Assembly (NCBI GenBank): GCA_963803145.1 | Contig: CAWDLW010000015.1 | Location: 1 to 64,000, forward strand | Source: Methanotrichaceae archaeon | GTDB taxonomy: Archaea > Halobacteriota > Methanosarcinia > Methanotrichales > Methanotrichaceae | Direction: 5' to 3' | Length of the DNA: 64,000 nt | In this document: piece after piece, positions 4,739 to 21,241 of the stretch | Layout: every line of letters starts with the position of its first letter | How positions within the stretch are numbered: position 1 is the first letter of the stretch | The notes under the pieces: model-generated | The model's input: only the letters and a program-made list of their open reading frames with translations | Database searches by the model: none | What the model was told of the DNA's origin: nothing | Position numbers and translations under genes: made by a program

Positions 4739-4769
4739 GCGATATTGGTCATGCGGGATACAGATAGAA

Positions 4770-4912
4770 TACTTGCTATGGGCCCTGCCAGGAGACTTGC
4801 AGGGATCTCTAAGCGAGAGTTTTTGGATGAGTTAGGTAAGAGAAAAATCGAGAGACATTATACAGCCGAGGAGTTTGAGGAGGATTTGGGATTTGCTAAA
4901 GGTGGTCTGTAA
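4770..4912 (+). pseudogene. UPF0175-family antitoxin, C-terminal fragment
   Basis: 'ARRLAGISKREFLDELGKRKI..HY..EEFEEDL' is typical of UPF0175; the N-terminus is missing. Confidence 0.65.
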
Positions 4913-5075
4913 CTCTTCTCCCCTTATCCACCTCTCAAAAGGGCATTAATGCTGATGCTTGATGAAGGCGAAACTGCATCAATCATGCTAGCCCTGGAGC
5001 AGAAAGCAGACTTGGTTATTTTAGATGACTATGACGGAAGAGTAGTGGCTAAAGAGTATAGACTCAATTTGATTC
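4893..5075 (+). pseudogene. DUF3368-type PIN toxin remnant (internal deletion, 3' truncated)
   Basis: Fragments 'KVVCNSSPLIHLSK' and 'LDEGETASIMLALEQKADLVILDDYDGR' in different frames. Confidence 0.7.
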
Positions 5076-5096
5076 AGCATTAGGATTTGCTATTCT

Positions 5097-5207
5097 AATT
5101 CGAGAGCCTACACTTTCTTCTGGGGCTAGAAACTAGCGGTCTTCCTAGCGCCCTCAATGCCGGGCGGGCTGCCCCTAACCCCTCGCTGGGGGAAGGTTTT
5201 GGAAAAC
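5097..5207 (+). repeat. structured intergenic repeat, copy R1 (core + A arm)
   Basis: Core TTCTTCTGGGGCTA..ACTAGCGG..CTAGCGCCCTCAATGCCGGGCG followed by CCCCTAACCCCTCGCTGGGGGAAGG.TTGGAAA. Confidence 0.9.
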
Positions 5208-5336
5208 ACAAATCATAATGTGGAAGGGATAAAAACGACTATTCCATCAATCTGCTCTGCCGAAGCATATGAGGGAATTCTAGACATCTTCCGAGCCAAA
5301 TTATTCATTTCTTTCTCTATCCACAATTAAAGCCGA

Positions 5337-5669
5337 TTAAGTTTCATCGATGATCCTTAATATCCTAGCTTTGAGAGCAGGCAAATCAATGCAAACCGTA
5401 TCCCATATCTCGTCCAAATCCAGCCCAAAGTAATGATGCACTAAAACATTTCGCATTGCTGTAACATTACTCCAAGGAATCTCGCTATAGCTTTGTCTAA
5501 TGGTGGGTGAAAGTTGATTTGCGGCCTCACCTATGACTTGAATATAATAGATAATCCATACCTGAATAAGTTCTTCTTCATAAAATGCTTGTCTGCCTTT
5601 GGCCGCATACTTCTCAATCTTTTCTATGGCCTCTAGTATATCCAACAGCCTTAGTCGATCATCCCTCAA
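5337..5669 (-). CDS. HEPN/DUF86 toxin (HepT-like)
   Basis: 'IGEAAN', 'EIPW' and RNVLVHHY (Rx4H) motifs; overlaps the upstream MNT gene. Confidence 0.9.
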   Translation of the reverse strand: MRDDRLRLLDILEAIEKIEKYAAKGRQAFYEEELIQVWIIYYIQVIGEAANQLSPTIRQSYSEIPWSNVTAMRNVLVHHYFGLDLDEIWDTVCIDLPALKARILRIIDET

Positions 5670-5956
5670 ATGGCTACCGCCTCACGAAGGACGCGGTCCC
5701 TGATCCTATCTCGCAGACCACGCTCGCTAACTACGTCCACTTTAATGCCCAAAAGCTCCTCCAGCTCCTGCTCTAGAGCAGCATGGCCGAGCAAAGTAGT
5801 GCCTCTTTTAAACTCCACCAGAAGATCTACATCGCTATTGGAGTCGGCCTCGCCTCGGGCTACGGAGCCGAAGATGCGCAAGTTATAGGCACCGTGCTTG
5901 GCGGCTATCTGCAGGATCTCCTCACGCCTGGATTTTAGGAGGTCGCTCTGATACAT
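5666..5956 (-). CDS. minimal nucleotidyltransferase (MNT/MntA) antitoxin
   Basis: IFGSVARGEA..SDVDLLVEF (GSx10DxD) motif. Confidence 0.9.
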   Translation of the reverse strand: MYQSDLLKSRREEILQIAAKHGAYNLRIFGSVARGEADSNSDVDLLVEFKRGTTLLGHAALEQELEELLGIKVDVVSERGLRDRIRDRVLREAVAI

Positions 5957-6080
5957 TCGCAGTAATTTCGCCTTTTGAATAGATCAAGGCTTCGGATGTT
6001 ACGGCCCAGAGAATTTGTGCAACAATCGACTCTTAAAAAATGATCGCTATTAAAGCACACTTAGTTCCGCATTAGGAGCG

Positions 6081-6400
6081 AATTCAAGAGCTTACACTTC
6101 TTCTGGGGCTAAAACTAACGGCCTTTCTAGCGCGCTCAGTTGCCGCGCGTGCTTCAAGTGATTGCAATTTTAAGAGCGTACATTGCGGAATCATTCTAGT
6201 TTTGCGTTTGTGCTGACTAATATAATTCAAAGCCTATACTTTCTTCTGGGTTTAAAACTAGCGGTTTCCTGGCCCCCTCAATCGCCGGGCGTGCTACCCC
6301 TAACCCCTCGCTGGGGGAAGGCTCTGGAAACATTGGATATAAGTTTGATGAAGACAAGATGAACGATTCCGTTAAACATTGAAGAGGCACTTTACCGCCC
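6081..6400 (+). repeat. composite repeat: R2 (core + B arm), R3 (core + A arm) and tail
   Basis: Two cores in tandem; B arm CAAGTGATTGCAATTTTAAGAGCGTACATTGC..TTTGCGTTTG; A arm CCCCTAACCCCTCGCTGGGGGAAGG. Confidence 0.9.
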
Positions 6401-6402
6401 AT

Positions 6403-6988
6403 TTATTCGCTGGCATTTGCCGCTGCCTCACAGTATTCCAGGACCATGGTCAAAGCTGAGACCCTGCCTTCAAGCTTCTTCTTGAGGATAACTATTGATG
6501 ATGCCTTGCCAATGACCTTTATCAAGCCCTCTGAAATGGCTGTGAGCCCGAATGCGAGTATAGCTGCCTCGGGTGTAAGCTCATCCCTCATCGGTATTCT
6601 CCCATCCCGGGCGCAGACCTTCCGACCATTCGCCGTAGCGGTGCGTTCTTACTAAAAGGCTGTTCTCATAGAGGATCAGCCTGTGCTCGCTGAAAAATTC
6701 TAACCCCTTTTCAAACTGTATCCTTTCTTTTCTAGTCAGAATGACAATCTCACAGCAGTAGCATTGCTCATAGATTTCGCTTAGCAGGAGCACCAGCGAT
6801 GTGACCTTCTCCAGGATCGCTTTCAAGACTGCTGACTCTCTTTCCAGAGTATCCTTTTTCAGATCGGCAATCTTGGCGGCCGTGGGATGAAGCTCATCCA
6901 GCGCTGTGCTCAGCCCTGATAACATGCCTGTGGTTACTGAATCGGTTGCTATCAGCGCGATGTTTTCGGAGAGGTTGGGGGCGGGCAC
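6403..6988 (-). pseudogene. ORF193-family hypothetical protein, copy 1 (frameshifted)
   Basis: Paralog of 14563-15144 and 19952-20530; one extra C at ~6586 (TCATCCCTCA vs TCATCCTCA). Confidence 0.85.
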
Positions 6989-7059
6989 TTAGATCACCCC
7001 TGCTGCTTTGGCGGGAGCGCTCACATGAAATATGAACCGTAAGCATACGTCCTTCGCCC

Positions 7060-7365
7060 TCTGGGCATCCATTAGGATAACATCGTAGGGCGACGCTTTG
7101 ATGCCTGTAACACTTCACGTCCATTGGCTGCTATGTCAGCATCGTATCCAATCTTCCTGAGCATTTGCAAGGTGACCTTCTGGTCCACTAGATTATCCTC
7201 GGCCAAGGGAATACGCAAAAAGGATGGTTGGCCTAATATTAGATGCGTCTCTGGCTGTTGAGAAATTGTTTTAGAGCGATCTAGCTTTCTAGTTGTGGCC
7301 GTTGCTATGATTGAATCTTCAGCAGCCGGATTAAACGTTCGCTGTACTCCGGAAAATATTTCCAA
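7060..7365 (-). pseudogene. response-regulator receiver domain fragment
   Basis: '[35 protein letters not shown]', then frameshifted 'YDVILMD' and truncation. Confidence 0.7.
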
Positions 7366-7419
7366 TTAAATATTTTAATTAAATAGTATTTTTAGTTTAT
7401 ATGTGTTCCGGTAGTCTAC

Positions 7420-8049
7420 CTATTTCATGTTGCTCCCGTCAGGAACCACGACATTCATAAGGATTTCTTTTATAGTCCAAATATGATCAGTCAAACCTGC
7501 AGCCATAGCTGGAGATCTTTGCGTCCAGCGTTGCTGTGATTTTGCTGAATCGATTCGTAACGACTTGTTAGGCCTGGCCAAATTATAAACCCAATCTTCC
7601 CAGGCACAAGAAACCCTATGCATCTCGATCTCTTTAGAGAAAGAAATGGTCTTTCTAACAAATCGCCCATTCATCTGTCTGGATGTTAGATGAGTCCTCT
7701 CGATATAGGCAGTATGGGTGCCCATTAGATCACAGACCCCTTTCGTATCACCAAAGACAACTTTGTAGTGGATACTAACAAGATGCCCTCCAGATCGTGT
7801 TTTGATTATCTGAATGCATTTCCAATCAGGCTCAGACTTCTTTCGAGTAGGCGGTCTTCCTCTACCAGAGTATTCAGGTACTTTCCCCCAAGTCTCGAGC
7901 ATGGCCTCCGGATAACTATCATAGCCATCAGTAGCGATAGCAGGAGGTTTATCCGGATTACCACGAGCCTTCAACTGGGCCATCAATTCCATAGAGACTT
8001 CGCTTTCACTCTTCCTGATTGATCGCCCAACTCTAAGGCGAGTATCCAT
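7420..8049 (-). CDS. IS1 InsB-like DDE transposase domain
   Basis: 'IATDGYDSY', 'HTAYIERTHLTSRQ' and 'SPAMAAGLTDHIWT' motifs. Confidence 0.85.
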   Translation of the reverse strand: MDTRLRVGRSIRKSESEVSMELMAQLKARGNPDKPPAIATDGYDSYPEAMLETWGKVPEYSGRGRPPTRKKSEPDWKCIQIIKTRSGGHLVSIHYKVVFGDTKGVCDLMGTHTAYIERTHLTSRQMNGRFVRKTISFSKEIEMHRVSCAWEDWVYNLARPNKSLRIDSAKSQQRWTQRSPAMAAGLTDHIWTIKEILMNVVVPDGSNMK

Positions 8050-8051
8050 AT

Positions 8052-8561
8052 CTATCGTTGTACCGCGCCAGAAGCTACCACGATCGTTCTCTTCTGGATA
8101 GCCCCCTTTTCGCCTTTATTTCCTACGTATGACCACATAGCATCCAGTTGAACACGAGTCAGTTTATAGTTTGCAAGCATTAGAGCCTCTAGCTCTTCAA
8201 CGTGGCTAGCTGCTTCGTGAAGCCAATCCATAACTGTTTCTTCTTTAATCCCCATAACCCGATGGATGGATGCCAGACTATTGCGTTCGGCCAGCAAGGC
8301 TAAGCATTTTAGAATTGTATCCTGGCTATGATGGCGACCATAGAATACTGTACCTATGTTTTCAACGAATGTCTTCCCACAGGTCTTGCATCGATAGCGT
8401 TGTGTTCCTTTGGCGGTTCGGCCAAATTTTATGATGTTTTCATTTTTTACTTTGCAATAGTCGATACACTCTTGGTTCCAGCAAAACGTGCTTGGAGGAA
8501 CCAATTGTTCATTCATCATTGTATTCCTCCAATTATATGATTGCAGTTGATAATATAACAA
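8052..8561 (-). CDS. IS1 InsA-like zinc-finger/HTH protein (N-terminal part of transposase)
   Basis: 'FGRTAKGTQRYRCKTCGKTF' zinc ribbon; ends near 'QLDAMWSYVGNK' and a probable frameshift site. Confidence 0.8.
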   Translation of the reverse strand: MLYYQLQSYNWRNTMMNEQLVPPSTFCWNQECIDYCKVKNENIIKFGRTAKGTQRYRCKTCGKTFVENIGTVFYGRHHSQDTILKCLALLAERNSLASIHRVMGIKEETVMDWLHEAASHVEELEALMLANYKLTRVQLDAMWSYVGNKGEKGAIQKRTIVVASGAVQR

Positions 8562-8717
8562 CTTATCTAAGGTAGACTACCTGTGTTCCAAAACCCAATA
8601 AATAGATGACTATTACACCTTTTGAGGATGTCTCATAAGCGCTAGTATCTAACAGAAATAAGGCTATGCGTATCCGATAGCATCAATCCTTTGTGTTGAT
8701 TTAACACGTTTTACTGA

Positions 8718-9092
8718 GTGTTCTTAATCTGTTCAATCATTCACGCTATCTTACGCCTATGTCCATCAGAAATATTTATAGTAGAGCAATGCGAATTAAA
8801 TGCGATGAAAATGGGGGACTACAAGGTTTATTACATAACTAAAGGACCGATTCGAGGACCTTGTGAGCATAAGCATCGAACCATTGACTATGCGTATCAC
8901 TGTTTAAGGCACGATATACAAGCCGCTGAAAAAGACGGCACTTCTTCGGACAGACGAATTTATGCAGTAGATAGCGGACAAGAGAGAGAGCTAGTAGAGC
9001 ATGAGATTAACGAATTAGATTATGCTAGAAGAACGGTATTGAAGAAAAAAGTTGTCAGGCAGGAACAAAGAAAATTGAACTCTGACATATGA
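8718..9092 (+). CDS. hypothetical protein (true start probably near 8805)
   Basis: ORF with a 'GPCEHKHRT' motif; function unknown. Confidence 0.55.
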   Translation: MFLICSIIHAILRLCPSEIFIVEQCELNAMKMGDYKVYYITKGPIRGPCEHKHRTIDYAYHCLRHDIQAAEKDGTSSDRRIYAVDSGQERELVEHEINELDYARRTVLKKKVVRQEQRKLNSDI

Positions 9093-9371
9093 ATTGATAT
9101 GCCTTGGGAATAAGTGTTTCCGCTTAAAGCTAAGGCTTGCATCATTGAGTATGATAAGGAGGCTCTTGCTACAAGGGCACTTCGATCAAATGAAAGCGCG
9201 TGATGGGAGTAATCGCTCTGACGGGCGATTTTTGCAAGGATCTCCTCTATTCATCCTTTATTCCCCTGTTCTATCAGTTGTTAAATTGAATTTGTTTTTA
9301 TTGTAGATGCTAGGGGAAATTATATCAATCCAGAGAGACAGTTATCACACAGCAAGAGGAAGCAAGATTAC

Positions 9372-9572
9372 ATGTATCCAATAATAGAGCTAGTAGGAAA
9401 AGACTCCATTTGCTGGGAATATGCTGTTCGAAACGCAATAGATACAGCATCAGAAAACCTTAGGGATCTTAGGATAGCCAAAGTTAAGGAGCTGGATGTA
9501 AAGATAGTTAATGGAAAGATATCCGAATACAGGGTTAAAATCGACCTTTCCTTCAAAGACGAGAAATGGTAG
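9372..9572 (+). CDS. dodecin-family protein
   Basis: 66 aa, 'IELVG.S..WE.AVRNAI..ASE.LRDLR...YRVK..LSFK'. Confidence 0.85.
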   Translation: MYPIIELVGKDSICWEYAVRNAIDTASENLRDLRIAKVKELDVKIVNGKISEYRVKIDLSFKDEKW

Positions 9573-10110
9573 TCTGGACTAACTCTATCTAAATTCCATA
9601 ATTTGCCGTTTTGAGTTTTATCCCCAATTTTGCTGTGATACTTCTTGGCCCATTTTTCAAAACCGCCCTTAAAGGCTGAAAACAACATCATCCTAGCTTC
9701 AGGTGTTATGCTTGATCTAGGGGCGCTCACTATCGGCTTTGTCTATAGGCTTGCTATGTAAGAGGACAAATCTGATTCTTCAGGATGCTACGAGGCTAAA
9801 GAGGATCCTCAACGACCTAAACTGACCAGAGTCGATAAAGAGCACTGCTCCTATCTTCATACCACGAAGAATAGTCAAGGAATATGCGCTGAAGCTCTAT
9901 CGAGAAACTATGAAAACGACTAATGAAATAAGGATGTAGATCAAAAGGCGGCGGATGGATAACGTAGTTGAGCTTATGGGCGTTTGAAGCGCCACTGCGA
10001 ACAGGCAATAATAAGCTAGCGTAATGAGGCATTTCCCAATCCTGAAGACAGCTCAATAAGATAGCGAAGTGTGAGTATTAAATAGGATAAAAAACAATAT
10101 CTATAGACCG

Positions 10111-11307
10111 ATGAGGGTCGGAATCTTTTCCTGGGAGAGCCTATATTCAATTAAAGTTGGTGGTGTTGCCCCATGCATCACGGAACTTTCAGAAGCTCTG
10201 GCTAGAAGAGGCCATGAGGTTCATATCTTTACTCGCCGTGGGGAGTTCGATACATATGATAAGATCAATGGCGTTCATTACCAGAGGGTAGATTCTGATG
10301 ACTCCGGTGATATAGTTGCCCAAATGAATAATATGAGCAACGCCATGTATGACCTGTTTGGAGAAGTTGAGAAGATATTTGGCAGGTTTGATATTGTTCA
10401 TTGCCATGATTGGCATCCTATTTGGGCATTAAATCGGATCAAGAAAGATTTCGGCCTGCCATATATCCTGACGATGCATAGCACCGAGTGGGGCAGGAAT
10501 GGGAACCATTTCGGATATGGCTTATCCCAGGAGATATCCCACCTGGAATGGCTGGGATCATATGAATCCTCAAAGGTCATAGTCACAACTAAACATATGA
10601 TGGATGAACTTAAGAGGATTTTTTCCGTTCCCAAAAGCAAAATCTGCATCATACCAAACGGCATAGTCGTTGGGAAGATGAGGAGAAACCTGGATGCAGG
10701 AAGGGTGAAAGAGCAGTACGGCATCCACCCGTTAGCACCTTTGGTGCTCTTTTGTGGCAGGATGAACATCCAGAAGGGTCCCGATCTCCTGGTCGAGGCC
10801 ATACCTCAGATATTGAAGAACCGGTTCGATATGAAGTTCGTCTTCATAGGCACTGGAGACATGAGGTCTCAGTGTGAACAGCGGGCTAGAGATCTGAATG
10901 CCGCACATGCCTGCAGGTTCCTGGGCTATACATCCGCCTCGATTAAGGAGAGGCTAATGAATGCCTGTGACATCATTTGCGTTCCCAGCAGGAATGAACC
11001 CTTCGGCGTGGTGGTATTGGAGGCCTGGGAGGTTTGTAAACCTGTGGTTGCCACAGAAGCAATCGGCATAATCAGGAATTTCGAAGATGGCCTCTTAGCA
11101 TACATCCAACCTGAGTCAATAGCATGGTGCATCAATAACCTGATCAGAAACCCGGAAGAAATGAAGAAACTGGCCATAGCTGGACGCAATAGATTGGAGG
11201 CTGAATTCGATTGGAACGAGATCGCCCGGAAGACCGAAGAGGTATATGCCATAGCCTCTAAAAGAGAGTTAGGGGTATCACAACCAAGCAGCAAAATCAT
11301 AGTTTAA
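10111..11307 (+). CDS. GT4 family glycosyltransferase (glycogen synthase-like)
   Basis: KVGGV, HCHDWH and PSRNEPFGVVVLEA motifs. Confidence 0.9.
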   Translation: MRVGIFSWESLYSIKVGGVAPCITELSEALARRGHEVHIFTRRGEFDTYDKINGVHYQRVDSDDSGDIVAQMNNMSNAMYDLFGEVEKIFGRFDIVHCHDWHPIWALNRIKKDFGLPYILTMHSTEWGRNGNHFGYGLSQEISHLEWLGSYESSKVIVTTKHMMDELKRIFSVPKSKICIIPNGIVVGKMRRNLDAGRVKEQYGIHPLAPLVLFCGRMNIQKGPDLLVEAIPQILKNRFDMKFVFIGTGDMRSQCEQRARDLNAAHACRFLGYTSASIKERLMNACDIICVPSRNEPFGVVVLEAWEVCKPVVATEAIGIIRNFEDGLLAYIQPESIAWCINNLIRNPEEMKKLAIAGRNRLEAEFDWNEIARKTEEVYAIASKRELGVSQPSSKIIV

Positions 11308-11685
11308 CGCTTACTTTTGGGGCTAATACCAGCGGCCTTCTGGCGCGCTCCAACGCCCGCACGGACATGAAGCAATTACAATCCAAGGGCGTGCATTATA
11401 AGCCACTCCTACTTTGCGTTTGGGCTGCTGCTAATTCAAGAGCTTACACTTCTTCCGGGGCTAATACTAGCGGCTATCTTAGCGCACTCAGTCGCCGCAC
11501 GGGCATCAAGTGATTGCAATTTTAAGAGCGTACATTGCAGAATCATTTTGATTTTGCGTTTGTGCTGACTAATATAATTCAAAGCCTATACTTTCTTCTG
11601 GTGCTAAAACTAACGGTTTTCCTAGCGCCCTCAATCGCCGGGCGGGCTACCCCTAACCCCTCGCTGGGGGAAGGTCTTGGAAAAA
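11308..11685 (+). repeat. triple repeat: R4 (diverged core + B), R5 (core + B), R6 (core + A)
   Basis: Three consecutive cores starting immediately after the glycosyltransferase stop codon. Confidence 0.9.
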
Positions 11686-11709
11686 AGCATGCGATAAAGG
11701 TGAAGGGGA

Positions 11710-12049
11710 TATGGATCAGATAAAGCCTGTCATCCTTCAAAGGGCAACTGCCTCCTTCACACCTTATCCCGGATGTACCAGTGCAGCCCTTCCGGCTCAA
11801 CCACATCCACTTTGCGGCCCAGAAGGTCCTGGAGATCCATGACCAGATTGCCAAGATCAAACAAATTCCTGCGCGACTCCAAAATCCACAAGGAAATCAA
11901 GATCGCTGTCCGGGCCTTCCTCGCCCCTGGCAACCGAGCCGAAGACCCTGCGTTACTGGCCCCGTGGGCCTCGGCAATGCGCAGGATCTCGCTTCGCCTC
12001 TGCTGAGGGATTCAAGACTGAGTTTTGGGCGATCTTGGGTCATGAGCAT
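11710..12049 (-). pseudogene. MNT antitoxin pseudogene plus the first codons of a HEPN toxin
   Basis: Frameshifted 'FGSVARGEEGPDSDLDFLVDF..DLQDLLGRKVDVV..GLHWYIRDKV', then 'KDDRLYLIHI' cut off at the repeat. Confidence 0.8.
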
Positions 12050-12114
12050 TTATTTGTTTATTTATGAATAACTATTTTTAACAGAGCATGGCGAACATGG
12101 ACCGCTACTAACAA

Positions 12115-12272
12115 AGAGAGTACACTTTTTTCTGGGGCTAATACTAATGGTGACGATAGCGCGCTCAGTCGCCACGCGGGCTTAAAGAGATTACAATTAA
12201 GACGCATACATTGCAGAACGACTCTGACCTTGCTTTTGGGCCTGTTAATATAATTCTAAAACTTAAACTTTC
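12115..12272 (+). repeat. repeat R7 (core + B arm) and the start of a further core
   Basis: CTGGGGCTAATACTAA..TAGCGCGCTCAGTCGCC core; diverged B arm; following AATTCTAAAACTTAAACTTTCT is cut off. Confidence 0.8.
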
Positions 12273-12319
12273 TTTCCCATGAAAAACCTTCACCGATGTT
12301 AGGTTTCTTATAGGAAAAC

Positions 12320-13615
12320 AGGCAGAAGACCCGCTCCCTTCAGGGGGCGGGATGAATGCCGTACGCTTTCCAGATTACTTTCGCTCCGTGCTCCATAGCT
12401 CTATATTCAAGCGCACTTAGAATAAAAACGAAATGAAGACTGCCTATAAGTTCAGAATGTATCCAACCAGGCGCCAAGAAGCTATGTTGGACCTGACACT
12501 CGAAACTTGTAGACATCTCTATAACCTAGCTTTGGCAGATAGGAAGAATGCCTATGAAGTTGAAGGCATTAGCAGAACCTATGAGGCTCAAGCTGCAATG
12601 CTGACGACTGATAAGAAGGACGGTAATTTCAAGTGTGTCTTCTCCCAGGTGCTTCAAGATGTTCTGAGAAGATTAGACAAGTCCTTCAAGTCATTCTTCC
12701 GAAGGGTCAAGGCAGGGGAAAAACCTGGATACCCTAGATTCAAGGGCCAAGGCTGGTATAAGTCGTTTACATATCCTCAAGTCGGATTCAAGCTCGAAGG
12801 CTCAAAGCTGACTCTCTCCAAGATCGGATCTATCAGGATATTCAAGCATCGAGAAGTCGAAGGTAAGATCAAGACTTGTACCATCAAGAAAGATAATCTA
12901 GGTCATTGGTATGCGATCTTAATATCTGAGATAAAAGATGTACCTCAGATTGAGCCAAAGACCGCCATTGGTGTAGATGTGGGCTTGAACAGCCTAGTTG
13001 CTCTTTCCACAGGTGAAACCGTTGAATATCCACGGTACTATGTCAAAGCTGAAAGTAAGCTTGCAGCAGCCCAAAGAGATCTTTCCAGGAAGAAGAAAGG
13101 ATCAAGCAATAGACGGAAAGCCAAGGCCAAAGTCGCCAAGCTTCACCAGAAGATCCAGAACCACAGAGACGAGTTCCTGCATCAAATATCCAGAAAGCTC
13201 GTAGATTCAGCAGATATAATCGTATTTGAAAACTTAAATATCCAAGGAATGCTAAAGAATCATCATCTAGCTAAGCACATTCAAGATCATGCTTGGGGCA
13301 AGTTAATCCAGTTCACAGAGAGCAAAGCTGCGAAGGCTGGCAAAGTGGTAGAACTGGTAGATGCGAGATATACATCTCAGAAATGCTCCCAGTGCGGTAT
13401 CATGGTTCCCAAGCAGCTGGCAGATCGAGTCCATCACTGCCCTAAATGCGGACTGGTGATGGACCGAGATCTCAATGCCAGCTTGAACATTCGCACCCTC
13501 GGACTGAGGGGAAGTGCCTATCAAGATTCGACCCCTACTTTGAGCAAACTATCAAAGCAAGTCAGATCGATGACGTAGGAAGCCCTGCCCCTTCAGGGGC
13601 ATGGGAGGAAGTCAC
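12320..13615 (+). mobile_element. IS200/IS605-family element, TnpB-only (IS1341-like); left boundary approximate
   Basis: Left hairpin CCCGCTCCCTTCAGGGGGCGGG; right hairpin GCCCCTTCAGGGGC ending GGAGGAAGTCAC at 13615; no tnpA. Confidence 0.85.
12433..13578 (+). CDS. tnpB: RNA-guided endonuclease TnpB
   Basis: AYKFRMYPT N-terminus; RuvC motifs GVDVG, FENL and DRDLNAS; CSQC..CPKC zinc finger. Confidence 0.95.
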   Translation: MKTAYKFRMYPTRRQEAMLDLTLETCRHLYNLALADRKNAYEVEGISRTYEAQAAMLTTDKKDGNFKCVFSQVLQDVLRRLDKSFKSFFRRVKAGEKPGYPRFKGQGWYKSFTYPQVGFKLEGSKLTLSKIGSIRIFKHREVEGKIKTCTIKKDNLGHWYAILISEIKDVPQIEPKTAIGVDVGLNSLVALSTGETVEYPRYYVKAESKLAAAQRDLSRKKKGSSNRRKAKAKVAKLHQKIQNHRDEFLHQISRKLVDSADIIVFENLNIQGMLKNHHLAKHIQDHAWGKLIQFTESKAAKAGKVVELVDARYTSQKCSQCGIMVPKQLADRVHHCPKCGLVMDRDLNASLNIRTLGLRGSAYQDSTPTLSKLSKQVRSMT

Positions 13616-13708
13616 AGACATCGAAGTCCGATGAGGGGAATTGAGACTACAAATATGCCCCCAGGATAACTATTAAAAGGTTTGCTACATACACATTATA
13701 GGATAGAT

Positions 13709-13915
13709 ATGGCCACCCTGGGTGAGTTCGTGGAGCAATTGCCTCCTGATATTCAGAAAGAGATCAAGGATTTTGCAGAGTTTTTGCTTTCTAAGAGGGC
13801 CAAGAAGAAACATAAAGTTCCATCTTTCGACTGGGAAGGGGCAATTAAGGATTTAGGAGAGCAGTACACATCAGTCGAGCTTCAGCACGAGATCTTAAGA
13901 TTGCGAGGAGATTAA
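13709..13915 (+). CDS. DUF2281-type antitoxin
   Basis: 'LPPDIQKEIKDFAEFLL..WEGAIKDL..YTSVELQH'; its stop overlaps the PIN start. Confidence 0.8.
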   Translation: MATLGEFVEQLPPDIQKEIKDFAEFLLSKRAKKKHKVPSFDWEGAIKDLGEQYTSVELQHEILRLRGD

Positions 13916-14307
13916 TGTATCTTTTGGATACGAATATATTTTTAGAGATCTTGCTAGAACGAGAAAACAGCAAAGCTGCAAAACATATCTTCATCAGTAA
14001 TCCATCTACTGATCTATTCATAACGGATTTTTCGCTTCATTCCTTGGGCGTTTTCCTATTTCAAAGAAATAAGCACGATGTCTATGAGCGCTTTGTCAAG
14101 GACATAGTAATAAAGACGGAAATTGGCGTGATCGGGCTGAACCCTGAAGAGGTTCCCATATTGGCTAGAGTCTCAAAGCGATTCAAATTGGATTTTGATG
14201 ATGCATATCAATATGCAGTTGCTGAAATACATGGCTTAGATATAGTAAGCTTTGATGCTGATTTCGATCGAACCGAGATAGGACGCAAGATACCAGATTC
14301 AAGATAG
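13915..14307 (+). CDS. PIN-domain (VapC-like) toxin
   Basis: MYLLDTNIFLE, LDFDDAYQY and SFDADFD motifs. Confidence 0.9.
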   Translation: MYLLDTNIFLEILLERENSKAAKHIFISNPSTDLFITDFSLHSLGVFLFQRNKHDVYERFVKDIVIKTEIGVIGLNPEEVPILARVSKRFKLDFDDAYQYAVAEIHGLDIVSFDADFDRTEIGRKIPDSR

Positions 14308-14310
14308 CGT

Positions 14311-14562
14311 TCTTCAAGTGTTTACAATTTTAAGAGCGTAAATTGCAGAATCATTCTGATTTTGCGTTTGCCTTGACAAGGATAATTCAGAGCATACACT
14401 TTCTTCTGAGGCTAACACTAGCGACCTTCTAGCGCGCTCAGTCGCCGCGCGGGCTGTCCCTAACCCCTCGCTGGGGGAAGGCTTTGGAAACATTGGCTAT
14501 ATGGTTGATGAGGACTGGATAAACGAGTGTTTATAACGTTTAGGAGAAACTTTGCCGAGCGT
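14311..14562 (+). repeat. B arm, repeat R8 (core + A) and tail
   Basis: Begins 3 bp after the PIN stop; same motifs as 6081-6400. Confidence 0.9.
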
Positions 14563-15144
14563 TTATTGTTTGGCATTTGCCGTTGCCTCACAGTATTCCA
14601 GAACCTTGGTTAAAGCTGAAAGCCTGCCTTCAAGCTTCTCTTTAAGTATAACTATTGATGAGGCATTGCCAAGAACCTTTATCAAGCCCTCTGAAATGGC
14701 TGTAAGCCCGAATGCGAGTATAGCTGCCTCGGGTGTAAGCTCATCCTCATCGGTATTCTCCCATCCCGGATGCAGACCTTCCGACCATTCGCCATAGCGG
14801 TGTGTCCTTGCGAGTAGGCCGTTCTCATAGAGAATCAGCCTGTATTCGCTGAAAAAGCCCAAACCCTCAAGCTGTATCCTTTCCTCTCTGGTCAGAATGA
14901 CAATCTCACGGCGGTAGCATTGCTCATAGTCATCGCTCAGCAGGGGCACCAGTGGCGTGACCTTCACCAGGATCGCTTTCAGGAGAGAGGCTTCTTTTTC
15001 TAGAGTTTCCTTTTTCAGATCGGCGATCTTTGAAGCTAGAGGATGAAGCTCGTCCAGCGCCGTGCTTAGCCCTGATAACATGCCTGCGGTTACTGGATCG
15101 GTGGCTATCAGGACGGTGTTTTTGGAGAGGTTGGGGGCGGGCAC
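14563..15144 (-). CDS. ORF193-family hypothetical protein, copy 2 (intact)
   Basis: 193 aa, GTG start after GGAGG; paralogous to two other copies in the window. Confidence 0.85.
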   Translation of the reverse strand: MPAPNLSKNTVLIATDPVTAGMLSGLSTALDELHPLASKIADLKKETLEKEASLLKAILVKVTPLVPLLSDDYEQCYRREIVILTREERIQLEGLGFFSEYRLILYENGLLARTHRYGEWSEGLHPGWENTDEDELTPEAAILAFGLTAISEGLIKVLGNASSIVILKEKLEGRLSALTKVLEYCEATANAKQ

Positions 15145-15316
15145 TTAGATCGCCTCCGATGCTAAAGATTCTAGCTTGTCAGCTAAGGTTTTTCCAGACA
15201 TTGTATTTCGCCTATGACCAATATTACTCCCAGATTTATAAGCTTTTTGGCAGCTGCTGGGAATATTGACAAGGAAATAAGGAAAATATATAAACTACGG
15301 CAGTCAACATCAGATC

Positions 15317-15466
15317 GTGCGTGAAATTACCACTGAATTAAAAATGGACTCTATGGGACGTGTTATGATACCAAAAGCATATAGAGATGAACTAAAGCTC
15401 ACGCCAGGCCAATTAGTCAAGGTTGTTATTAGCAATCCCTATGAGAAGTATGAAGGGCAGGGTTAA
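15317..15466 (+). CDS. AbrB/MazE/SpoVT-family DNA-binding protein (49 aa)
   Basis: Manually translated MREITTELKMDSMGRVMIPKAYRDELKLTPGQLVKVVIS; D..GR..IP...R..L...PG motif. Confidence 0.8.
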   Translation: MREITTELKMDSMGRVMIPKAYRDELKLTPGQLVKVVISNPYEKYEGQG

Positions 15467-15693
15467 CCTGACCTGCCCCTGGCATTGATTTGGGCGAAAT
15501 ACAATGCCGAAGAATGAAGCATATCGATTGAATATAGAGCTTTTCTGGTAGTACGTCATAGTTATTGGCGACAAGCTGGGCATCAACCAGGGTCCGTTCC
15601 AACGATGGCCGAATAACAAGAACCTCGTACCTTCTGGAAACGATTACATTTAAATTTCTGTTCGCTTTATTATACTACAGAGAACCACAACAT

Positions 15694-15990
15694 ATGCATA
15701 CGAATATTGAGGAGTTGCTAAAATCCAGGCGCCAGGATATTCTAGCTATAGCTGCCAGGCACGGTGCTCACAATGTACGGATTTTCGGCTCAGTTGCTAG
15801 AGGAGAGGCCGGGCCTGAGAGCGACCTGGATATTCTTGTAGAGATGGAGCCAGGGACTAGCTTAATGGATCATATAGCCCTTATGCAGGATCTCGAAGAC
15901 CTCCTGGGACGAAAGGTGGATGTGGTTAGCGATAAAGCCTTGCACTGGTATATCAGAGACCGAGTGCTTGCCGAGGCTACTCCTTTATGA
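15694..15990 (+). CDS. MNT antitoxin
   Basis: IFGSVARGEAGPESDLDILVE motif. Confidence 0.9.
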   Translation: MHTNIEELLKSRRQDILAIAARHGAHNVRIFGSVARGEAGPESDLDILVEMEPGTSLMDHIALMQDLEDLLGRKVDVVSDKALHWYIRDRVLAEATPL

Positions 15991-16079
15991 TGGACGATTG
16001 GGCTCTATTTGATCCATATCTGGGAGTGCATTGAGCGGATTGAGTCTTATGCTGAAGATGAGCTTCGATTGCTTCTGTG
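15987..16079 (+). pseudogene. HEPN/DUF86 toxin 5' fragment
   Basis: Frameshifted 'MMDD..LYLIHIWECIERIESYAE', truncated just before the repeat. Confidence 0.7.
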
Positions 16080-16080
16080 A

Positions 16081-16109
16081 AAAGCTACACTTTCTTCTGG
16101 GGCTAAAAC
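16081..16109 (+). repeat. repeat R9, left part (split by IS110)
   Basis: AAAGCTACACTTTCTTCTGGGGCTAAAAC; the repeat resumes at 18731. Confidence 0.9.
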
Positions 16110-16177
16110 GCCCATGATCCTTAAGGGTCATACGTGGCGGATGAAAAACCTCACATTCATGGCCAACTATGTTTAGT

Positions 16178-16330
16178 CTGATATGGGCAGTGAAGGCAGC
16201 TTTAATTTTGAGATCATGATCTCGCGGCTAAAACTGGCCAATAATCCCGCGAATACGGGGCTGCGTCGTTGAACGCGTATGGGAAATTGCCCCTTATGAG
16301 GGTTTAATCTTAATCATCTGCCCATATCAG
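16178..16330 (+). ncRNA. putative IS110 bridge RNA
   Basis: Enclosed by a 13-bp stem CTGATATGGGCAG/CTGCCCATATCAG; contains GGCTAAAACT (16226-16235, target match) and ATGGGAAA (16279-16286, donor match). Confidence 0.7.
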
Positions 16331-16343
16331 GATAGCGACATAT

Positions 16344-18688
16344 ATGGGCAAACGAAGAGATAGAGTTTGCGGAGCAGATGTCCATAAAGATCTCATAGTA
16401 GCCACGATCGAAGATGCAGATGGGACTGAAATCCAGGAACAGTTTGGCACGACTCGTTCTGAGCTAGAGAGATTCAGGAATTGGCTCATAGCCAATAATT
16501 GCGAGCAAGTAGCATTCGAAGCTACAGGTGTTTACTGGTTTCCAGTATACGATTGCCTGAGTCCCTCTATTGATACAATTGTAGCAAATCCATGGATGGT
16601 CAAAGGACTTGTAGGGGATAAGTCGGATTCTCATGACGCTAAGAGGATTGCAGGTAACTGCTTGGATGGCAAAATCAAGAGATCAAGAGTCTTTTCCAAT
16701 GAGGATAGAGCCCTCAGAATGATGACCCGTGCCAGATCAGGATATATAAAGACTCAAACTCAACTTAGAAACAGAGTTCATAAGTATCTAGCACTTTGCG
16801 GCATAAAGCTGAGTTCTTGTATTTCAGACATCTTTGGTAAATCAGGCAGGATTATCTTGGACGGCCTGGTTGAAGGCAAGGATGCAGACTCGATCCTGGA
16901 CAGCATCACTTCAAAGAAGATCAAGAAAAAGCGAGACGTCATCAAAGCGGCTCTTGCAAACGGTCTTGATGATACTTCGAGAATGCTTGTTAAGGATAAT
17001 CTAGAGCTCCTTGATCTTCTGAAAAAGAAGATAGATAAAACAAGTCTTGAAGTGCTTAGCAAATTTCAGAAAAGCGCTAAAGATCTGGCAATAGTTATGT
17101 CAATTCCAGGAATAAGTTTTAGATCAGGGTCGACCATCTTGGCAGAAATCGGTGACTATCACGATTTCCAAACCCCAGAACAAATCGCTAAATGGTGTGG
17201 ATTGGTTCCTGGACTACATGAATCTGCAGGGAAAAAGAAGCAATGTGGTATTACGAAACAGGGGTCCAAGAGTCTCAGAACTATGCTTGTCGAGATAGCT
17301 CAAGTGATAGCTAAGATGAGAAATAACAAGAACAAGCTCTCAAGGTACTTCCATAGATTATCGGCCAGAAAGAGTTACAATGTAGCGATCACTGCTTTAG
17401 CACGGAAATTATAGTTAATCATTGAGCTTATTGCCCTATAGATACATTTAATAATTAATGCGTGAAAATACATAGGCATGGGTAGAAAACCTATAATAAT
17501 TAGGCATATATCAAAGATAGACCTTGATAAATTATATAAAAAAGAGACTGATCTAAGGATTAAGGAACGGTTATTGGCAATAATACATTTATATGAAGGG
17601 AAAAACGTATATGAGGTAGCTGATATTTTAAAAAGGGGCGAGAGGACAATAAAATATTGGTTAAGCAGATGGAATAATCAAGGCTATAATGGATTGACAC
17701 CAAAGAATAGAAATGGCAAAAAGCCAAAGATGTCTCTTGATGAATGGGATAGAGTTATTAAAGAAATTGAAGACAAAGGAATGACGATAAAAGACGTATT
17801 AAAATATGTAAGGGATACAAGAGGTATAGATTTTTCATATAAATATGGCTGGCGAATTTTAAGAGTAGTGAAAAAAGTTAAGTATGGGAAACCATACATC
17901 AGAAATGAAAAGAGGCCTGCAGATGCAGAAAGTTTTTTAAAAAAGGATAAAATCAGTGCTGACCACTGTTACTGATCCTGTTATAGGATTTCTTGATGAA
18001 AGCTCTTTACAACAGCGCCCTAATACACGTAGAGTCTTAAACACTCATTTAATAAATTATAAACCTGGAAAGGTTAGATCAAGAACTATTTTTGGATTTA
18101 TAGCATTAAATGGCAATGATGAGGTTATGGTTTCCAACTCCTCTAAGAAGGAAGCGTTGATGGCATTTGCTCAAAATATAAGAAATAATAATATTATGAG
18201 GCCAATTTGTATACTTTTAGATAATGCTAGAATTCATTTGGCCAAGAAATTTAGAAAACTAGCTGAGGAAATCGATATTCACTTAATTTATAATATCCCC
18301 TATTCACCAGATTTGAATCCTATAGAATTCGGTTGGAAGGATTTCAAAAGAGAGATCGCCAAATACACTGATTTCGATGAAGCTATTATAGCTAGCCAAG
18401 ATTGCGCTTTAGAAATATTTTATTCCAAAAAGGATGGATATTCAAAGTCCTGGGTGGAGCGATTTCTTAGTGCAAAAAGCTAGGAGATTAACTATAATCA
18501 CAATAATTTATCATCTGCTGATCAATCAAGAGCTATATCAAGATAACAAATGCACTACTGATACATCAAAACCAGTCAAAAGGGACCTCCTCTATCTATC
18601 CAAAGATGAGCGATTGAAGGATGGAGTGGCTGCTATCGTAGACGCCTTTTATCACTTGAAGAATAGACATTCGGTAGGGGGTGGATAG
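16344..18688 (+). pseudogene. IS110 recombinase/transposase, interrupted at 17411 by IS630
   Basis: GADVHK, FEATGVYW, KSDSHDA and GLVPGLHESAG motifs; excising IS630 restores ALARKLITIIYHLL. Confidence 0.9.
17412..18494 (+). mobile_element. IS630-family insertion sequence (two ORFs, probable -1 frameshift)
   Basis: TIRs TAGTTAATC/GATTAACTA with TA duplication; HTH ORF 17478-17975 and DDE ORF 17956-18483 (FLDES, LDNARIH, PYSPDLNPIE). Confidence 0.92.
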
Positions 18689-18730
18689 CACCCCATTTCT
18701 TTTAATTGAGGAAGGTTTTTCATGGGAAAC

Positions 18731-18860
18731 TAACGGCCATCCTAGCGCGCTCAGTCGCCGCGCGGGCTACCCCTAACCCCTCGCTGGGGGAAGGCTTTGG
18801 AAATATGGGGATAAAGTTGATGTGGACAAGATGAACGATTCCGCTTAACGTTGAAGAGGA
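18731..18860 (+). repeat. repeat R9, right part (rest of core + A arm + tail)
   Basis: TAACGGCCATCCTAGCGCGCTCAGTCGCCGCGCGGGCTACCCCTAACCCCTCGCTGGGGGAAGG. Confidence 0.9.
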
Positions 18861-18977
18861 ATTTAATACAATAAAGACGGCCTATCACAAATCGATATCA
18901 TTAGCCGAGCATAATGGTCTTAAGCATTTTGACAGTCCATCAAAAAATTCAACTAATAAAACATCGAATACAATAGC

Positions 18978-19178
18978 ATGTCTGAAGTAAAGACAACGAT
19001 ATCCCTGCCATCAGGTTTGGCCAAACAAGCCCAGGAACAGATACAGGCGGGATGGTTTCCAGATATCAACAGTCTCGTCGTCGAGGCCCTACGGCGATAT
19101 CTGGAAACCCATCGAGATGAACTGATGGAGCGTTTCATTCGAGAGGATGTCGGATGGGGACTTCACGGAGATGAGTGA
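18978..19178 (+). CDS. CopG/RHH-type antitoxin
   Basis: 66 aa, 'TISLPSGL....IQAGWFPDINSLVVEALRRYL'; overlaps the PIN gene. Confidence 0.75.
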   Translation: MSEVKTTISLPSGLAKQAQEQIQAGWFPDINSLVVEALRRYLETHRDELMERFIREDVGWGLHGDE

Positions 19179-19686
19179 AGCCGTTCTGGATGCAGGGCCT
19201 CTTATCCATCTCTCAGAGCTGGAAGCGCTGGACACTCTTATGGATTTCTCGGCGCTATTTGTCCCTATGGCAGTCCAGGAAGAGGTGAAATGCCATCAGC
19301 CCAATGCATTGAAGCATCCAGGTCTTTCGCTTCAGCACGTCTTTGCGCCACTTCCATCGCCATCCCTCCTGACAATGGGTCGCGCTCTGGCTTTGGATAA
19401 AGGTGAGATGGAGGCTTTGAGCCTAATGGACCTTCATCCCAAGGCGATTTTCCTGACCGATGATTCTGCTGCCAGACTTGCTGCAGAGCATCGAGGGATC
19501 AAGGCTCACGGCACGATCGGCATATTGATCCGCAGCGTTCGTAAAGGCCATACGACAGAACGAGAGGCTATCGACCTTTTGAGAGATCTGCGCAGCAGAT
19601 CAACCTTGTACATCCGGCCAGCTCTTCTTGAAGAAATTATCCAGACCCTCGAAAAAGAATGGAAGCTTGTCCTTGAGAAACAGTAG
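19171..19686 (+). CDS. PIN-domain toxin (DUF3368-like)
   Basis: AVLDAGPLIHL, LDKGEMEAL, FLTDD.AAR and HGTIGIL motifs. Confidence 0.85.
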   Translation: MSEAVLDAGPLIHLSELEALDTLMDFSALFVPMAVQEEVKCHQPNALKHPGLSLQHVFAPLPSPSLLTMGRALALDKGEMEALSLMDLHPKAIFLTDDSAARLAAEHRGIKAHGTIGILIRSVRKGHTTEREAIDLLRDLRSRSTLYIRPALLEEIIQTLEKEWKLVLEKQ

Positions 19687-19765
19687 AACTGCCGTTTGCA
19701 TCAATCACTCTTCATGCAAGTGATCAGGTCGGCACTTATACGAGGTAATTGGCTTCGCACAGATG

Positions 19766-19950
19766 ATATAATTCAGAGCCTATACATTCTTCTGGGGCTA
19801 AGACTAGCGGTTTCCTGGCGCCCTCAATCGCCGGGCAGGCTGCCCCTAGCCCCTCGCTGGGGGAAGGCTTTGGAAAAGATAGGCCATAAGGTTGATTGGA
19901 CAGATACGAACGATCTCGCCTAACGTTAAGAGGCACTTTACCGCCCATTT
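19766..19950 (+). repeat. repeat R10 (core + A arm + tail)
   Basis: Same motifs as R3; directly downstream of ORF193 copy 3. Confidence 0.9.
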
Positions 19951-19951
19951 A

Positions 19952-20530
19952 TTAGTTGGCACTCGCCGTTGTCTCACAGTATTCCAGGGCCTTGGTCAAC
20001 GCTAAGATCCTGCCTTCAAGCTTCTCTTTGAGGATAGCTATTGATGAGGCGTCGCCAAGAACCTTTATCAAGCCCTCTGAAATGGCTGTGAGCCCGAATG
20101 CGAGTATAGCTGCCTCGGGTGTAAGCTCATCCTCATCGGTATTCTCCCATCCCGGGCGCAGACCTTCCGACCATTCGCCGTAGCGGTGCGTTCTAACTAA
20201 GAGGCCGTTCTCATAGAGGATCAGCCTGTACTCGCTGAAAAAGCCAAAACCCTCAAGCTGTATCCTTTCTTCTCTGGTCAGAATGACAATCTCACGGCGG
20301 TAGCATTGCTCATAGTCCTCGCTCAGCAGGGGCACAAGTGGCGTGACCTTCTCCAGGATCGCTTTTAGGATAGAGGCTTCTTTTTCCAGAGTTTCCTTTT
20401 TCAGATCGGCAATCCTGGAAGCGTTGGGATGAAGTTCATCCAGCGCCGTGCTCAGCCCTGATAACATGCCTGCGGTTACTGGATCGGTGGCTATCAGAAT
20501 GGCGTTTTCAGAGAGGTTGGGGGTGGGCAC
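19952..20530 (-). CDS. ORF193-family hypothetical protein, copy 3 (intact)
   Basis: 192 aa, closely similar to 14563-15144. Confidence 0.85.
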   Translation of the reverse strand: MPTPNLSENAILIATDPVTAGMLSGLSTALDELHPNASRIADLKKETLEKEASILKAILEKVTPLVPLLSEDYEQCYRREIVILTREERIQLEGFGFFSEYRLILYENGLLVRTHRYGEWSEGLRPGWENTDEDELTPEAAILAFGLTAISEGLIKVLGDASSIAILKEKLEGRILALTKALEYCETTASAN

Positions 20531-20712
20531 TTAGATCGCCTCCGATGCTTTGGCTGGAGCGCTTACAGTAGTCTTAAAGATAGTTCTTCCAAACATTGTA
20601 TTTCACCGATTACTAACTTAGCTGCTATGTATATAATCTTAATGGCACTCAATGCCATTTAATGCCATTGGAGAGGGAAGTTATTTAAATAACGTTTGAA
20701 AAATGGTATTTT

Positions 20713-20850
20713 ATGCGCGAAATAACCACTGAGTTGAAGATAGACAAACAAGGTCGCATTGTTATCCCTGAGATTTACAGGCAGGAGTTAGGGATAGAGC
20801 CCGGCCAACTGGTGAAAATAACTATCAGCAATCCTAAGAAGAATGATTAA
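20713..20850 (+). CDS. AbrB/MazE/SpoVT-family DNA-binding protein (45 aa)
   Basis: Manually translated MREITTELKIDKQGRIVIPEIYRQELGIEPGQLVKITIS. Confidence 0.85.
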   Translation: MREITTELKIDKQGRIVIPEIYRQELGIEPGQLVKITISNPKKND

Positions 20851-21019
20851 GGGCGGATTATCCGCCCTGGCGTTGGTTTTGGTGAAACACAATGCCGAAT
20901 AAAGGGCTGTATCGATGGGATATAGAGATTTTCCTATGGTACGTCATAATCTAAACCGATATGCAGTTTGATTTTTTTATAGGAAAATACAATTGATTGA
21001 GCATCAGGACCTCACATAA

Positions 21020-21170
21020 CATTCAAAGACTTTGTACTACTTCTGGGGGCTAACACTAGCGGCCTTCTGGCGCGCTCAGTCGCCGCGCGGGCTACCCCTA
21101 ACCCCTCGTTGGGGGGAAAGCTTTGGAAAACATATGATGAAAAGTTGAAGAGAAAATGATTAACGATTCC
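21020..21170 (+). repeat. repeat R11 (core + A arm + partial tail)
   Basis: CTTCTGGGGGCTAACACTAGCGGCCTTCTGGCGCGCTCAGTCGCCGCGCGGGCTACCCCTAACCCC. Confidence 0.9.
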
Positions 21171-21241
21171 CTTTTGTTGGGACTCGATAATTCTCGCTTC
21201 CCACAGCAATAGCGGGTTATCACTATTACCTTCATTAGAGT

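Follow-up and report, generated by a model that had tools for sequence, protein, structure and literature searches.

A structured intergenic repeat as a mosaic junction between toxin–antitoxin cassettes in a Methanotrichaceae archaeon

How do toxin–antitoxin (TA) and defence genes come to stand in an ordered array in an archaeon without recognisable integron machinery? The stretch that raises this question is the first 64 kb of contig C15 (hereafter the window), part of a 4.13-Mb assembly of 51 contigs (G000; completeness 99.3%, contamination estimate 6.77%) from the Methanotrichaceae, a family of acetate-using methanogens. Archaeal TA and defence genes are known to cluster, and in the window such genes occupy the intervals between copies of a repeat, called R, which thus shows the joints of such a cluster and offers a testable handle on how islands of this kind are assembled. 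Comparison of the repeats within G000 and with two species of the same genus (the sister species G002 and a further species, G001) reveals that R is a mosaic junction, the 5′ part of which travels with the upstream DNA and the 3′ part with the downstream DNA, and that the cassettes between repeats are reshuffled from species to species.

A de novo repeat search of the window returned families of seven copies of 92 nt (D4), six of 72 nt (D5) and eight of 30 nt (D7). A profile built from an alignment of 44 full G000 copies and searched with nhmmer has 12 matches in the window, all on the + strand between 5068 and 21189, which amount to 11 copies of R because one copy is split by inserted insertion sequence (IS) elements (Table 1). 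A preliminary description made from the letters alone had counted about 11 repeats in one orientation, and the profile finds them at the places it listed; its core of about 75 bp is a repeat indeed but was sized too short, as the unit is about 200 nt long (profile positions 3–203) and carries a further 5′ extension in some copies. The two alternative arms it had distinguished correspond to full copies, which run into a second hairpin, and half copies, which end at profile position 105 and continue into different sequence. Three half copies lie in the window, two of them with a full R about 45 nt downstream, and such half-plus-full doublets number about 11 genome-wide as read off the table of profile matches. 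Two repeats are placed within 3 bp of a stop codon, at 11307 and 14307, as had been noticed: the repeat sequence begins immediately after the TAA of the glycosyltransferase gene (11305–11307), and the 5′ extension of another copy immediately after the TAG of the PIN gene (14305–14307).

What shows that R is a mosaic? When pairs among the 63 full G000 copies are sorted by related upstream or downstream DNA, 22 pairs have a related downstream flank, and in 19 of them the upstream flank is unrelated. The downstream-related pairs are alike from profile column 131 on (identity 0.86 versus 0.71 for all pairs) and not in their 5′ part, the excess of identity beginning in columns 131–140. Conversely, the 17 upstream-related pairs, mostly doublets that share a half copy, are alike in columns 11–40 and 71–80 only. 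Between species, a hybrid R of G002 agrees with one G000 repeat in its 5′ part and the flank upstream, and with another in its 3′ part and downstream flank; of the 26 informative columns, 22 fit one switch placed between columns 132 and 134, immediately 3′ of the hairpin called C below. A search for recombinant repeats between species found three triads among 44 foreign repeats, one of them informative; five foreign copies have both flanks traceable to G000 repeats, three of which join different repeats while two are collinear.

The comparison of cargo order that the preliminary description had proposed was made between species. Blocks of the G000 array on contig C23 reappear in an array on contig C4 of G002 with their order permuted and their orientation unchanged, and order is likewise permuted and orientation kept for the array on contig C8. 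Across the genus, a comparison of three singleton loci gave three outcomes: all three species have R at the first; at the second, a housekeeping locus, G001 is without the R core and keeps the R tail from about column 150, the rest of the spacer being unrelated; at the third, synteny breaks at R. Within G000, a 97%-identical cargo duplication on C23 starts only past the R tail, near column 205, and on C8 the duplicated beginnings of an epimerase gene break off within that gene. The idea that the repeat is a recombination site survives insofar as cassettes are joined at R, which the mosaic and the hybrid demonstrate; a single fixed crossover position is weakened by the several places at which junctions fall (profile 132–134, about 150 and about 205), of which the first is resolved to a few bases.

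The window locus itself forms a variable island some 25 kb long. At 26833, beside a tRNA gene at the right edge of the island, synteny with G002 is regained, and the corresponding locus of G002 spans 8.7 kb and contains a single R together with three cassettes that the window also has; among these syntenic sequences is a block 94.7% identical to the MNT–HepT block of the window (5337–5956). Contig C42 of G000 (1–6718, against window 1684–6270) carries the left flank of the island in a second version (identity 98.8% over 1684–5131 and 100% over 5595–6270), with an IS110-family element in the first R, an extra piece encoding a ribbon-helix-helix (RHH)–PIN pair and different cargo behind it. Variable content at the locus is thus seen in this second haplotype. 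It also means that the assembly, with its contamination estimate of 6.77%, holds two strains or a duplicated locus. The left edge of the syntenic island coincides exactly with 73 nt of the window (1441–1513) that are 96% identical in G002, a conservation far above that of the surroundings; the stretch has no tRNA or Rfam match. The tRNA gene at the right edge was recovered only by Rfam, ARAGORN finding no tRNA in the window, and its length of 99 nt suggests that it contains an intron.

How is R distributed over the genome? The profile has 128 matches in G000, which fall into 56 groups: 12 clusters of at least three (70 matches), 14 pairs and 30 singletons. Neighbouring copies less than 6 kb apart have the same orientation in 59 of 72 pairs (binomial p 4e-8), a set that includes split copies and doublets. 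R is tied to TA genes: of the 21 Pfam PIN or HepT matches in the whole of G000 (15 PIN and six HepT), 13 are less than 1 kb away from R, a distance within which only 5.0% of the genome falls (p 1.6e-12). The larger clusters, on C8, C23, C20, C12 and C15, hold cargo of the same kind, namely ParE, HicA/HicB, MazE/MazF, UPF0175, PIN, MqsA, TumE, HEPN/MNT and DUF4258/DUF2283, together with further copies of a gene called ORF193 (see below) and pieces of genes for sugar metabolism. Relative to R, cargo is found on both strands. At several of 14 inspected loci, which are singletons, R stands between large, ordinary-looking genes. The nearest-neighbour identity among the 63 full copies has a median of 85.7% and a maximum of 95.8%, the latter in a local duplication; as there is no near-identical set, the copies must be considered old, unlike the IS copies of G000, which among those listed are mostly 97–100% identical to each other.

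Outside G000, R was found in 7 of 41 related genomes by BLAST with one copy as query, and a strict pattern of the core matched 47 stretches in one genome each of 185,579 species, all of them in four Methanotrichaceae assemblies; no viral contig matched this pattern. A covariance model of the core has matches in 18 of 77 Methanotrichaceae genomes. The window's genus has at least 49–51 copies in each of its three genomes; genus g10 gave two counts of 18, a single g15 genome has 15 copies, g14 has 7 and several others 1–2, and there are none in 16 g8 genomes or in 7 g6 genomes. R is thus restricted to a lineage. In the other genera the core is kept and the 5′ part is replaced by other hairpin-forming sequences, and the inspected copies lie mostly beside genes for topoisomerase, HisG, thermosome, Ham1, SAICAR synthase and isocitrate dehydrogenase, TA genes being near R at 3 of 12 loci. 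The preliminary description had regarded scatter over the genome with no link to cargo as the mark of an ordinary repeat. Scatter there is (30 singletons and 14 pairs), yet the TA association holds in G000; in the other genera R, mostly beside housekeeping genes, comes closer to that picture.

What is conserved within R? The repeat consists of a modular 5′ region, with at least three alternative forms before one and the same core, the two-hairpin core itself (hairpins B and C) and a 3′ tail about 60 nt long. The stem of hairpin B measures 5 bp, and its 9-nt loop, TCARTCGCC, reads TCAGTCGCC or TCAATCGCC in 96 of 131 copies; hairpin C, which is CCCC, five bases and GGGG, is almost invariant, one flanking pair being changed from UA to CG in four copies. 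In a set of 131 distinct copies from six genomes about 92% of the cells of hairpin B are paired, and 67 cells are changed on both sides, at two stem positions: pair 58–95 is CG in 102 copies and UA in 23, and pair 59–76 is GC in 69, CG in 32 and AU in 12. This covariation score was reached by none of 500 shuffles and falls far lower when the partners are slid by one to three columns. It follows that some partner reads the structure. A closing stem, a first hairpin A1 and an alternative A2 were not accepted, with only 72.5%, 72.9% and 72.2% of cells paired. When six copies from the window are folded as DNA, either strand yields small local hairpins only. Rfam 15 has no relevant match over 4500–22000 at E ≤ 1, just a chance match to a human long non-coding RNA model, and at gathering scores its matches in the whole window are a tRNA and an L4 leader. 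The tail was tried as a general promoter motif and rejected, as 58 of 64 tail matches adjoin a core.

By which process could such arrays arise? In the reading that we favour, and to which we would give an even chance, R is an old intergenic module resembling repetitive extragenic palindromic (REP) elements that acts, mostly by homology, as the portable junction of TA cassettes. Each block would carry an R tail in front and the 5′ part of R with its hairpins at the back, so that a complete R results wherever two blocks abut. Direct repeats in the same orientation could recombine within the conserved core, most simply by the homologous recombination of the cell, and R–R recombination could duplicate or delete blocks, or release them as loops that re-enter at any other R, whereby arrays would be built and reshuffled while cargo is not inverted. 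The hairpins may be kept for an action on the transcript or on single-stranded DNA, for instance as an insulator or at the end of a transcript, and the tail may serve as promoter or leader of the next gene; these roles, like homologous recombination as the agent, are inferred. Several observations weigh against this picture. A structure-reading partner of the hairpin, be it a protein, an RNA or a process on single-stranded DNA, must exist, and homologous recombination alone leaves the upkeep of the loop and of the covarying stem across genera unexplained. Only one junction is resolved to a few bases, and a site-specific enzyme is also compatible with a crossover preferentially placed immediately 3′ of hairpin C. 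The folds of the six window copies are no more stable than those of shuffled sequences (z −1.05 to +0.99), and the mismatches in hairpin B, 31 A–C and 17 G–T wobbles, do not tell apart which strand folds. Moreover, measured against classical REP elements and their composites, the bacterial interspersed mosaic elements (BIMEs), R is long, lies mostly in one orientation and comes with no RAYT-type gene.

An alternative, close to what the preliminary description had supposed, is a dedicated enzyme encoded elsewhere in the genome. R would then belong to a site-specific cassette system of integron-like logic built from unrelated parts, in which a tyrosine recombinase, an HUH enzyme or a new enzyme reads hairpins B and C, probably as single strands, cuts a few bases 3′ of C, excises circles and inserts them at other R copies. 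A covarying stem with a conserved loop is what one would expect of a site read by its structure; the one well-resolved junction (columns 132–134) lies right after hairpin C, where the identity excess of the downstream-related pairs also starts (columns 131–140); orientation is kept in arrays, the reshuffled ones included; several cargo genes end 0–3 bp from R; and the patchy genera with their unequal copy numbers (at least 49–51, 18, 15, 7, 1–2 and 0) look like those of a mobile system. However, no enzyme could be tied to R. G000 contains no integron integrase, the best TIGR02249 score being 48.8 bits against a cut-off of 265, and no serine recombinase; of its 13 matches to tyrosine recombinases (PF00589) even the nearest are about 4.4 kb away from an array; and its intact HUH genes (PF01797) are only three identical IS200/IS605-type copies far from any R. 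Apart from a 33-residue PF01797 fragment (E 0.0012) about 1.2 kb from the C23 array, no PF01797 gene or fragment lies beside R, and no recombinase stands next to any array examined. By inspection the ends of R bear no RYYYAAC/GTTRRRY pair, and R forms no single long palindrome; R is accordingly not attC, and the earlier statement that it shows no clean attC palindrome and that no integrase is in view is supported by both profiles, the folds and inspection. The junctions at about 150 in G001, at about 205 on C23 and inside the epimerase gene on C8, the age of the copies (85.7%) with no near-identical set among them, and the many single copies between ordinary genes further weaken accretion by a dedicated enzyme. 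Such accretion stays an inference, the data being explained equally well by homologous recombination between repeats, and we consider a site-specific system of this kind unlikely. Equally doubtful is the bolder form, in which the Methanotrichaceae possess a second, non-integron cassette platform whose putative enzyme reads single-stranded B/C and cuts a few bases 3′ of C; if it were true, TA and defence cassettes would loop out and re-insert at any of about 100 chromosomal R sites, a distributed, integrase-less archaeal analogue of the Vibrio superintegron.

Two further readings, each somewhat less probable still, concern R as an element in its own right. R could be a present or former non-autonomous transposable element, either a MITE (a miniature inverted-repeat transposable element) or a palindrome-associated relative of IS200/IS605, that inserted itself into intergenic DNA and accumulated in islands of TA and defence genes, since these tolerate insertions; the cassette pattern would then be a by-product. 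IS200/IS605 elements and their palindrome-associated relatives act strand-specifically, have subterminal hairpins with cleavage a fixed short distance from the hairpin, and show neither inverted terminal repeats nor target duplication. High copy number confined to few genera, singletons between ordinary genes, the locus with R in G000 and no R core in G001, the modular 5′ part and the presence of IS200/IS605 transposase and TnpB genes in the genome would suit such an origin. Against it, three copies tested with their flanks have no terminal inverted repeats, and the three singleton loci compared across the genus show no clean empty site or target duplication, as the 'empty' G001 site keeps the R tail and its spacer differs throughout. 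In addition, there are no young copies of R; its tail, which would be the left end of an IS200/IS605-like element, lacks a matching hairpin; nothing like R is seen in the resident IS200/IS605 copies, near which the R profile has no match; and the 59 of 72 neighbours in the same orientation are not expected from random insertion. R might also act mainly as an expressed RNA, be it a small structured RNA or an untranslated region, that controls the adjoining TA and defence genes and is repeated since every cassette requires one, and this too we hold to be rather improbable. The covariation of the hairpin fits RNA, and the consensus appears to contain A+T-rich, TATA-like stretches in the 3′ tail and some 25–30 nt ahead of the first hairpin as well as a T-rich run right after the G+C-rich hairpin C; G001, moreover, keeps the R tail before the downstream gene though the core is gone. 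This is countered by the lack of any Rfam family match to R, by the upstream TATA-like stretch, which is not conserved in copies from other genera, and by the cargo on either strand relative to R; an RNA role alone would leave mosaic and reshuffling unexplained. The four readings are not fully exclusive.

How does R compare with known systems? Sedentary chromosomal integrons and CALINs, which are attC clusters without integrase, have been described (PMC4889954), as have integrons of archaea (PMC9668308), the main text of the latter article, apart from its supplements, being free of the words Methanothrix, Methanosaeta, Methanotrich and Methanosarcin. Like these, R arrays contain small TA-rich cassettes bounded by a species-typical structured repeat of about 100–200 nt in one orientation, co-oriented sites enclosing single cassettes of about 0.5–3 kb; cassette order differs between relatives, and arrays stand without an adjacent integrase. 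Unlike an integron, the genome has no integron integrase at all, R is not one long imperfect palindrome with inverted boxes, there are 12 arrays and many singletons in place of one platform, cargo is often antisense, and R copies occur between ordinary genes as well. With the REP and BIME elements of bacteria (PMC2817692, PMC3184786) R shares that it is high in copy number, extragenic, lineage-restricted and found at gene ends, that it contains short G+C-rich hairpins, and that it is a hot spot of rearrangement and a specific target of an IS110-family element. It differs in being 5–10 times longer, composite and arranged head-to-tail rather than alternating, in its strong tie to TA cassettes in the window's genus, in its archaeal host and in having no RAYT-type (Y1 HUH) transposase gene with it. 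The pdif modules of Acinetobacter plasmids, in which 28-bp XerC/XerD sites alternate in orientation, resemble the R arrays in that discrete blocks, often TA pairs, lie in varied order between short recombination sites; no such sites were seen here, where no search was aimed at them. Titles and abstract openings of the literature on archaeal integrons, on Methanothrix/Methanosaeta repeats and on archaeal MITEs yielded no description of R. Should a dedicated enzyme exist, R would represent a new recombination system; should none exist, plain homology between REP-like repeats can mimic an integron this far.

R is also the target of a mobile element. A 1532-bp element of the IS110 family abuts an R fragment at profile 64–67 in all eight of its full or near-full copies, which lie in the window (16110–18726) and on the G000 contigs C8, C18, C27, C42, C23, C34 and C9; a partial copy of 876 nt on C25 is not at R. 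The element is a repeat-specific archaeal IS110, a case from nature in which a member of this family targets a repeat of an archaeon, and is comparable to ISPpu9 and ISPpu10 of Pseudomonas, members of the same family reported to target REP or conserved intergenic repeats. The window copy in turn contains an IS630-like element, and the joint 17409 to 18495, without this insert, is seen in contigs of all four metagenome runs and also in other contigs; metagenome contigs over 3000–22500 are short, and joints within R are not separable from those of other R copies.

Table 1. Repeat copies, cargo genes and other features of the variable island, in window coordinates
Feature	Position	Strand	Basis
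UPF0175 antitoxin-like gene, just before first R	4589–4912	+	Pfam PF03683, E 1.3e-11
R copy 1, full, profile 3–199	5068–5263	+	nhmmer; also covariance model of core
MNT (5666–5956) and HepT/HEPN (5337–5669) TA pair, antisense to R	5337–5956	−	PF01909, E 6.7e-15; PF01934, E 4.5e-25
R half copy, profile 5–105, first of doublet	6062–6153	+	nhmmer
R full copy, profile 4–202	6196–6391	+	nhmmer
ORF193 copy, broken (one TGA read through)	6403–6988	−	sequence comparison
IS1-like IS (InsA-like and DDE open reading frames)	7420–8561	−	Pfam
GT4 glycosyltransferase, non-TA cargo	10111–11307	+	PF00534, E 5.2e-31
R fragment, profile 34–102, directly after glycosyltransferase stop codon	11296–11364	+	nhmmer, sequence
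R half copy, profile 7–104, first of doublet	11411–11504	+	nhmmer
R full copy, profile 3–181	11547–11726	+	nhmmer; covariance model
R half copy, profile 30–105	12107–12182	+	nhmmer
TnpB (IS605 OrfB) gene of an IS	12433–13578	+	Pfam; 97.8% identical copy on contig C8
DUF2281 antitoxin (13682–13915) and PIN toxin (13915–14307)	13682–14307	+	PF10047, E 8.6e-17; PF01850, E 1.6e-16
R full copy, profile 3–203; 5′ extension from 14307, after PIN stop codon	14355–14552	+	nhmmer, sequence
ORF193, intact, antisense to R; stop codon 10 nt past R end	14563–15144	−	sequence
Lone MNT nucleotidyltransferase	15565–15990	+	PF01909, E 5.3e-13
5′ piece of IS110-cut R copy, profile 38–67	16080–16109	+	nhmmer
IS110-family element inserted in R; transposase 16344–17414	16110–18726	+	Pfam
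IS630-like element inside window IS110 copy (open reading frames)	17478–18483		Pfam
3′ piece of same IS110-cut R copy, profile 64–203	18727–18864	+	nhmmer
Small ParD/RHH-like open reading frame and PIN-like DUF3368 gene (19147–19686)	18978–19686	+	NCBIfam TIGR02606, Pfam PF11848
R copy, profile 21–195	19759–19931	+	nhmmer
ORF193, intact, antisense to R	19952–20530	−	sequence comparison
R full copy, last of array, profile 3–200	20992–21189	+	nhmmer
STAND/NACHT-type NTPase body, after last R	21242–24913	−	Pfam
tRNA gene, 99 nt, right edge of island	26840–26938	−	Rfam RF00005, 44.5 bits

The cargo of the window (Table 1) largely agrees with the preliminary assignments, as Pfam supports MNT–HEPN, DUF2281–PIN, MNT, UPF0175 and a STAND/NACHT-type NTPase; the AbrB label was not confirmed. 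The two matches for the ParD/RHH-like and DUF3368 genes are weak (E 4.9e-4 and 1.3e-5) and both below the family cut-offs. Four insertion sequences (IS1-like, TnpB, IS110 and IS630-like) lie in the array, the IS1-like one with five further copies, 98.7–100% identical, among the matches listed. The gene encoding the STAND/NACHT protein looks split: an open reading frame (ORF) for an NNH7 N-terminal domain (25889–26521, − strand) stands apart from the NTPase body, and between them lies an IS630-like helix-turn-helix ORF (24878–25369, + strand).

ORF193 is the commonest cargo, and its three window copies, one of them broken, match no family in Pfam, NCBIfam or PADLOC. Matches number 24 in G000, 20 in G002, 1 in G001 and 8 in G042, and a protein atlas of 1.84 billion proteins holds only 55 representative clusters, all unnamed. 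Its AlphaFold model is confident (pLDDT 90.9) and consists of a long helix, a four-stranded sheet and a helical bundle, for which no clear structural relative was found (best Foldseek E 0.035; best VIA Z 7.1 over 53 residues). Upstream of other copies lies an ORF of about 74 residues with a weak AbiEi-like match (E 0.0038), and the two may form a new TA-like pair. ORF193 was also considered as the missing enzyme and rejected, since it was not found in the R-bearing genomes G011, G015, G016 and G023 and has one copy in G001 against about 50 repeats.

Some loci elsewhere in G000 show further arrangements. At locus L002 (C8:432055–435252) R and the first 100–360 nt of a gene for an NAD-dependent epimerase stand three in a row, the first two epimerase copies being truncated and followed by HicB/HicA-like pairs, as judged from translations, and the third intact. 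Between two R copies on C43 (9811–10107) lies a different repeat of about 170 nt, which occurs in at least eight other places on other contigs with copies 85–91% identical and is probably a separate MITE-like element. Beyond the island, the L4 leader mentioned above is a match to the Rfam model of the L4-Archaeoglobi ribosomal protein leader, on the − strand at window 42472–42565 with 57.9 bits.

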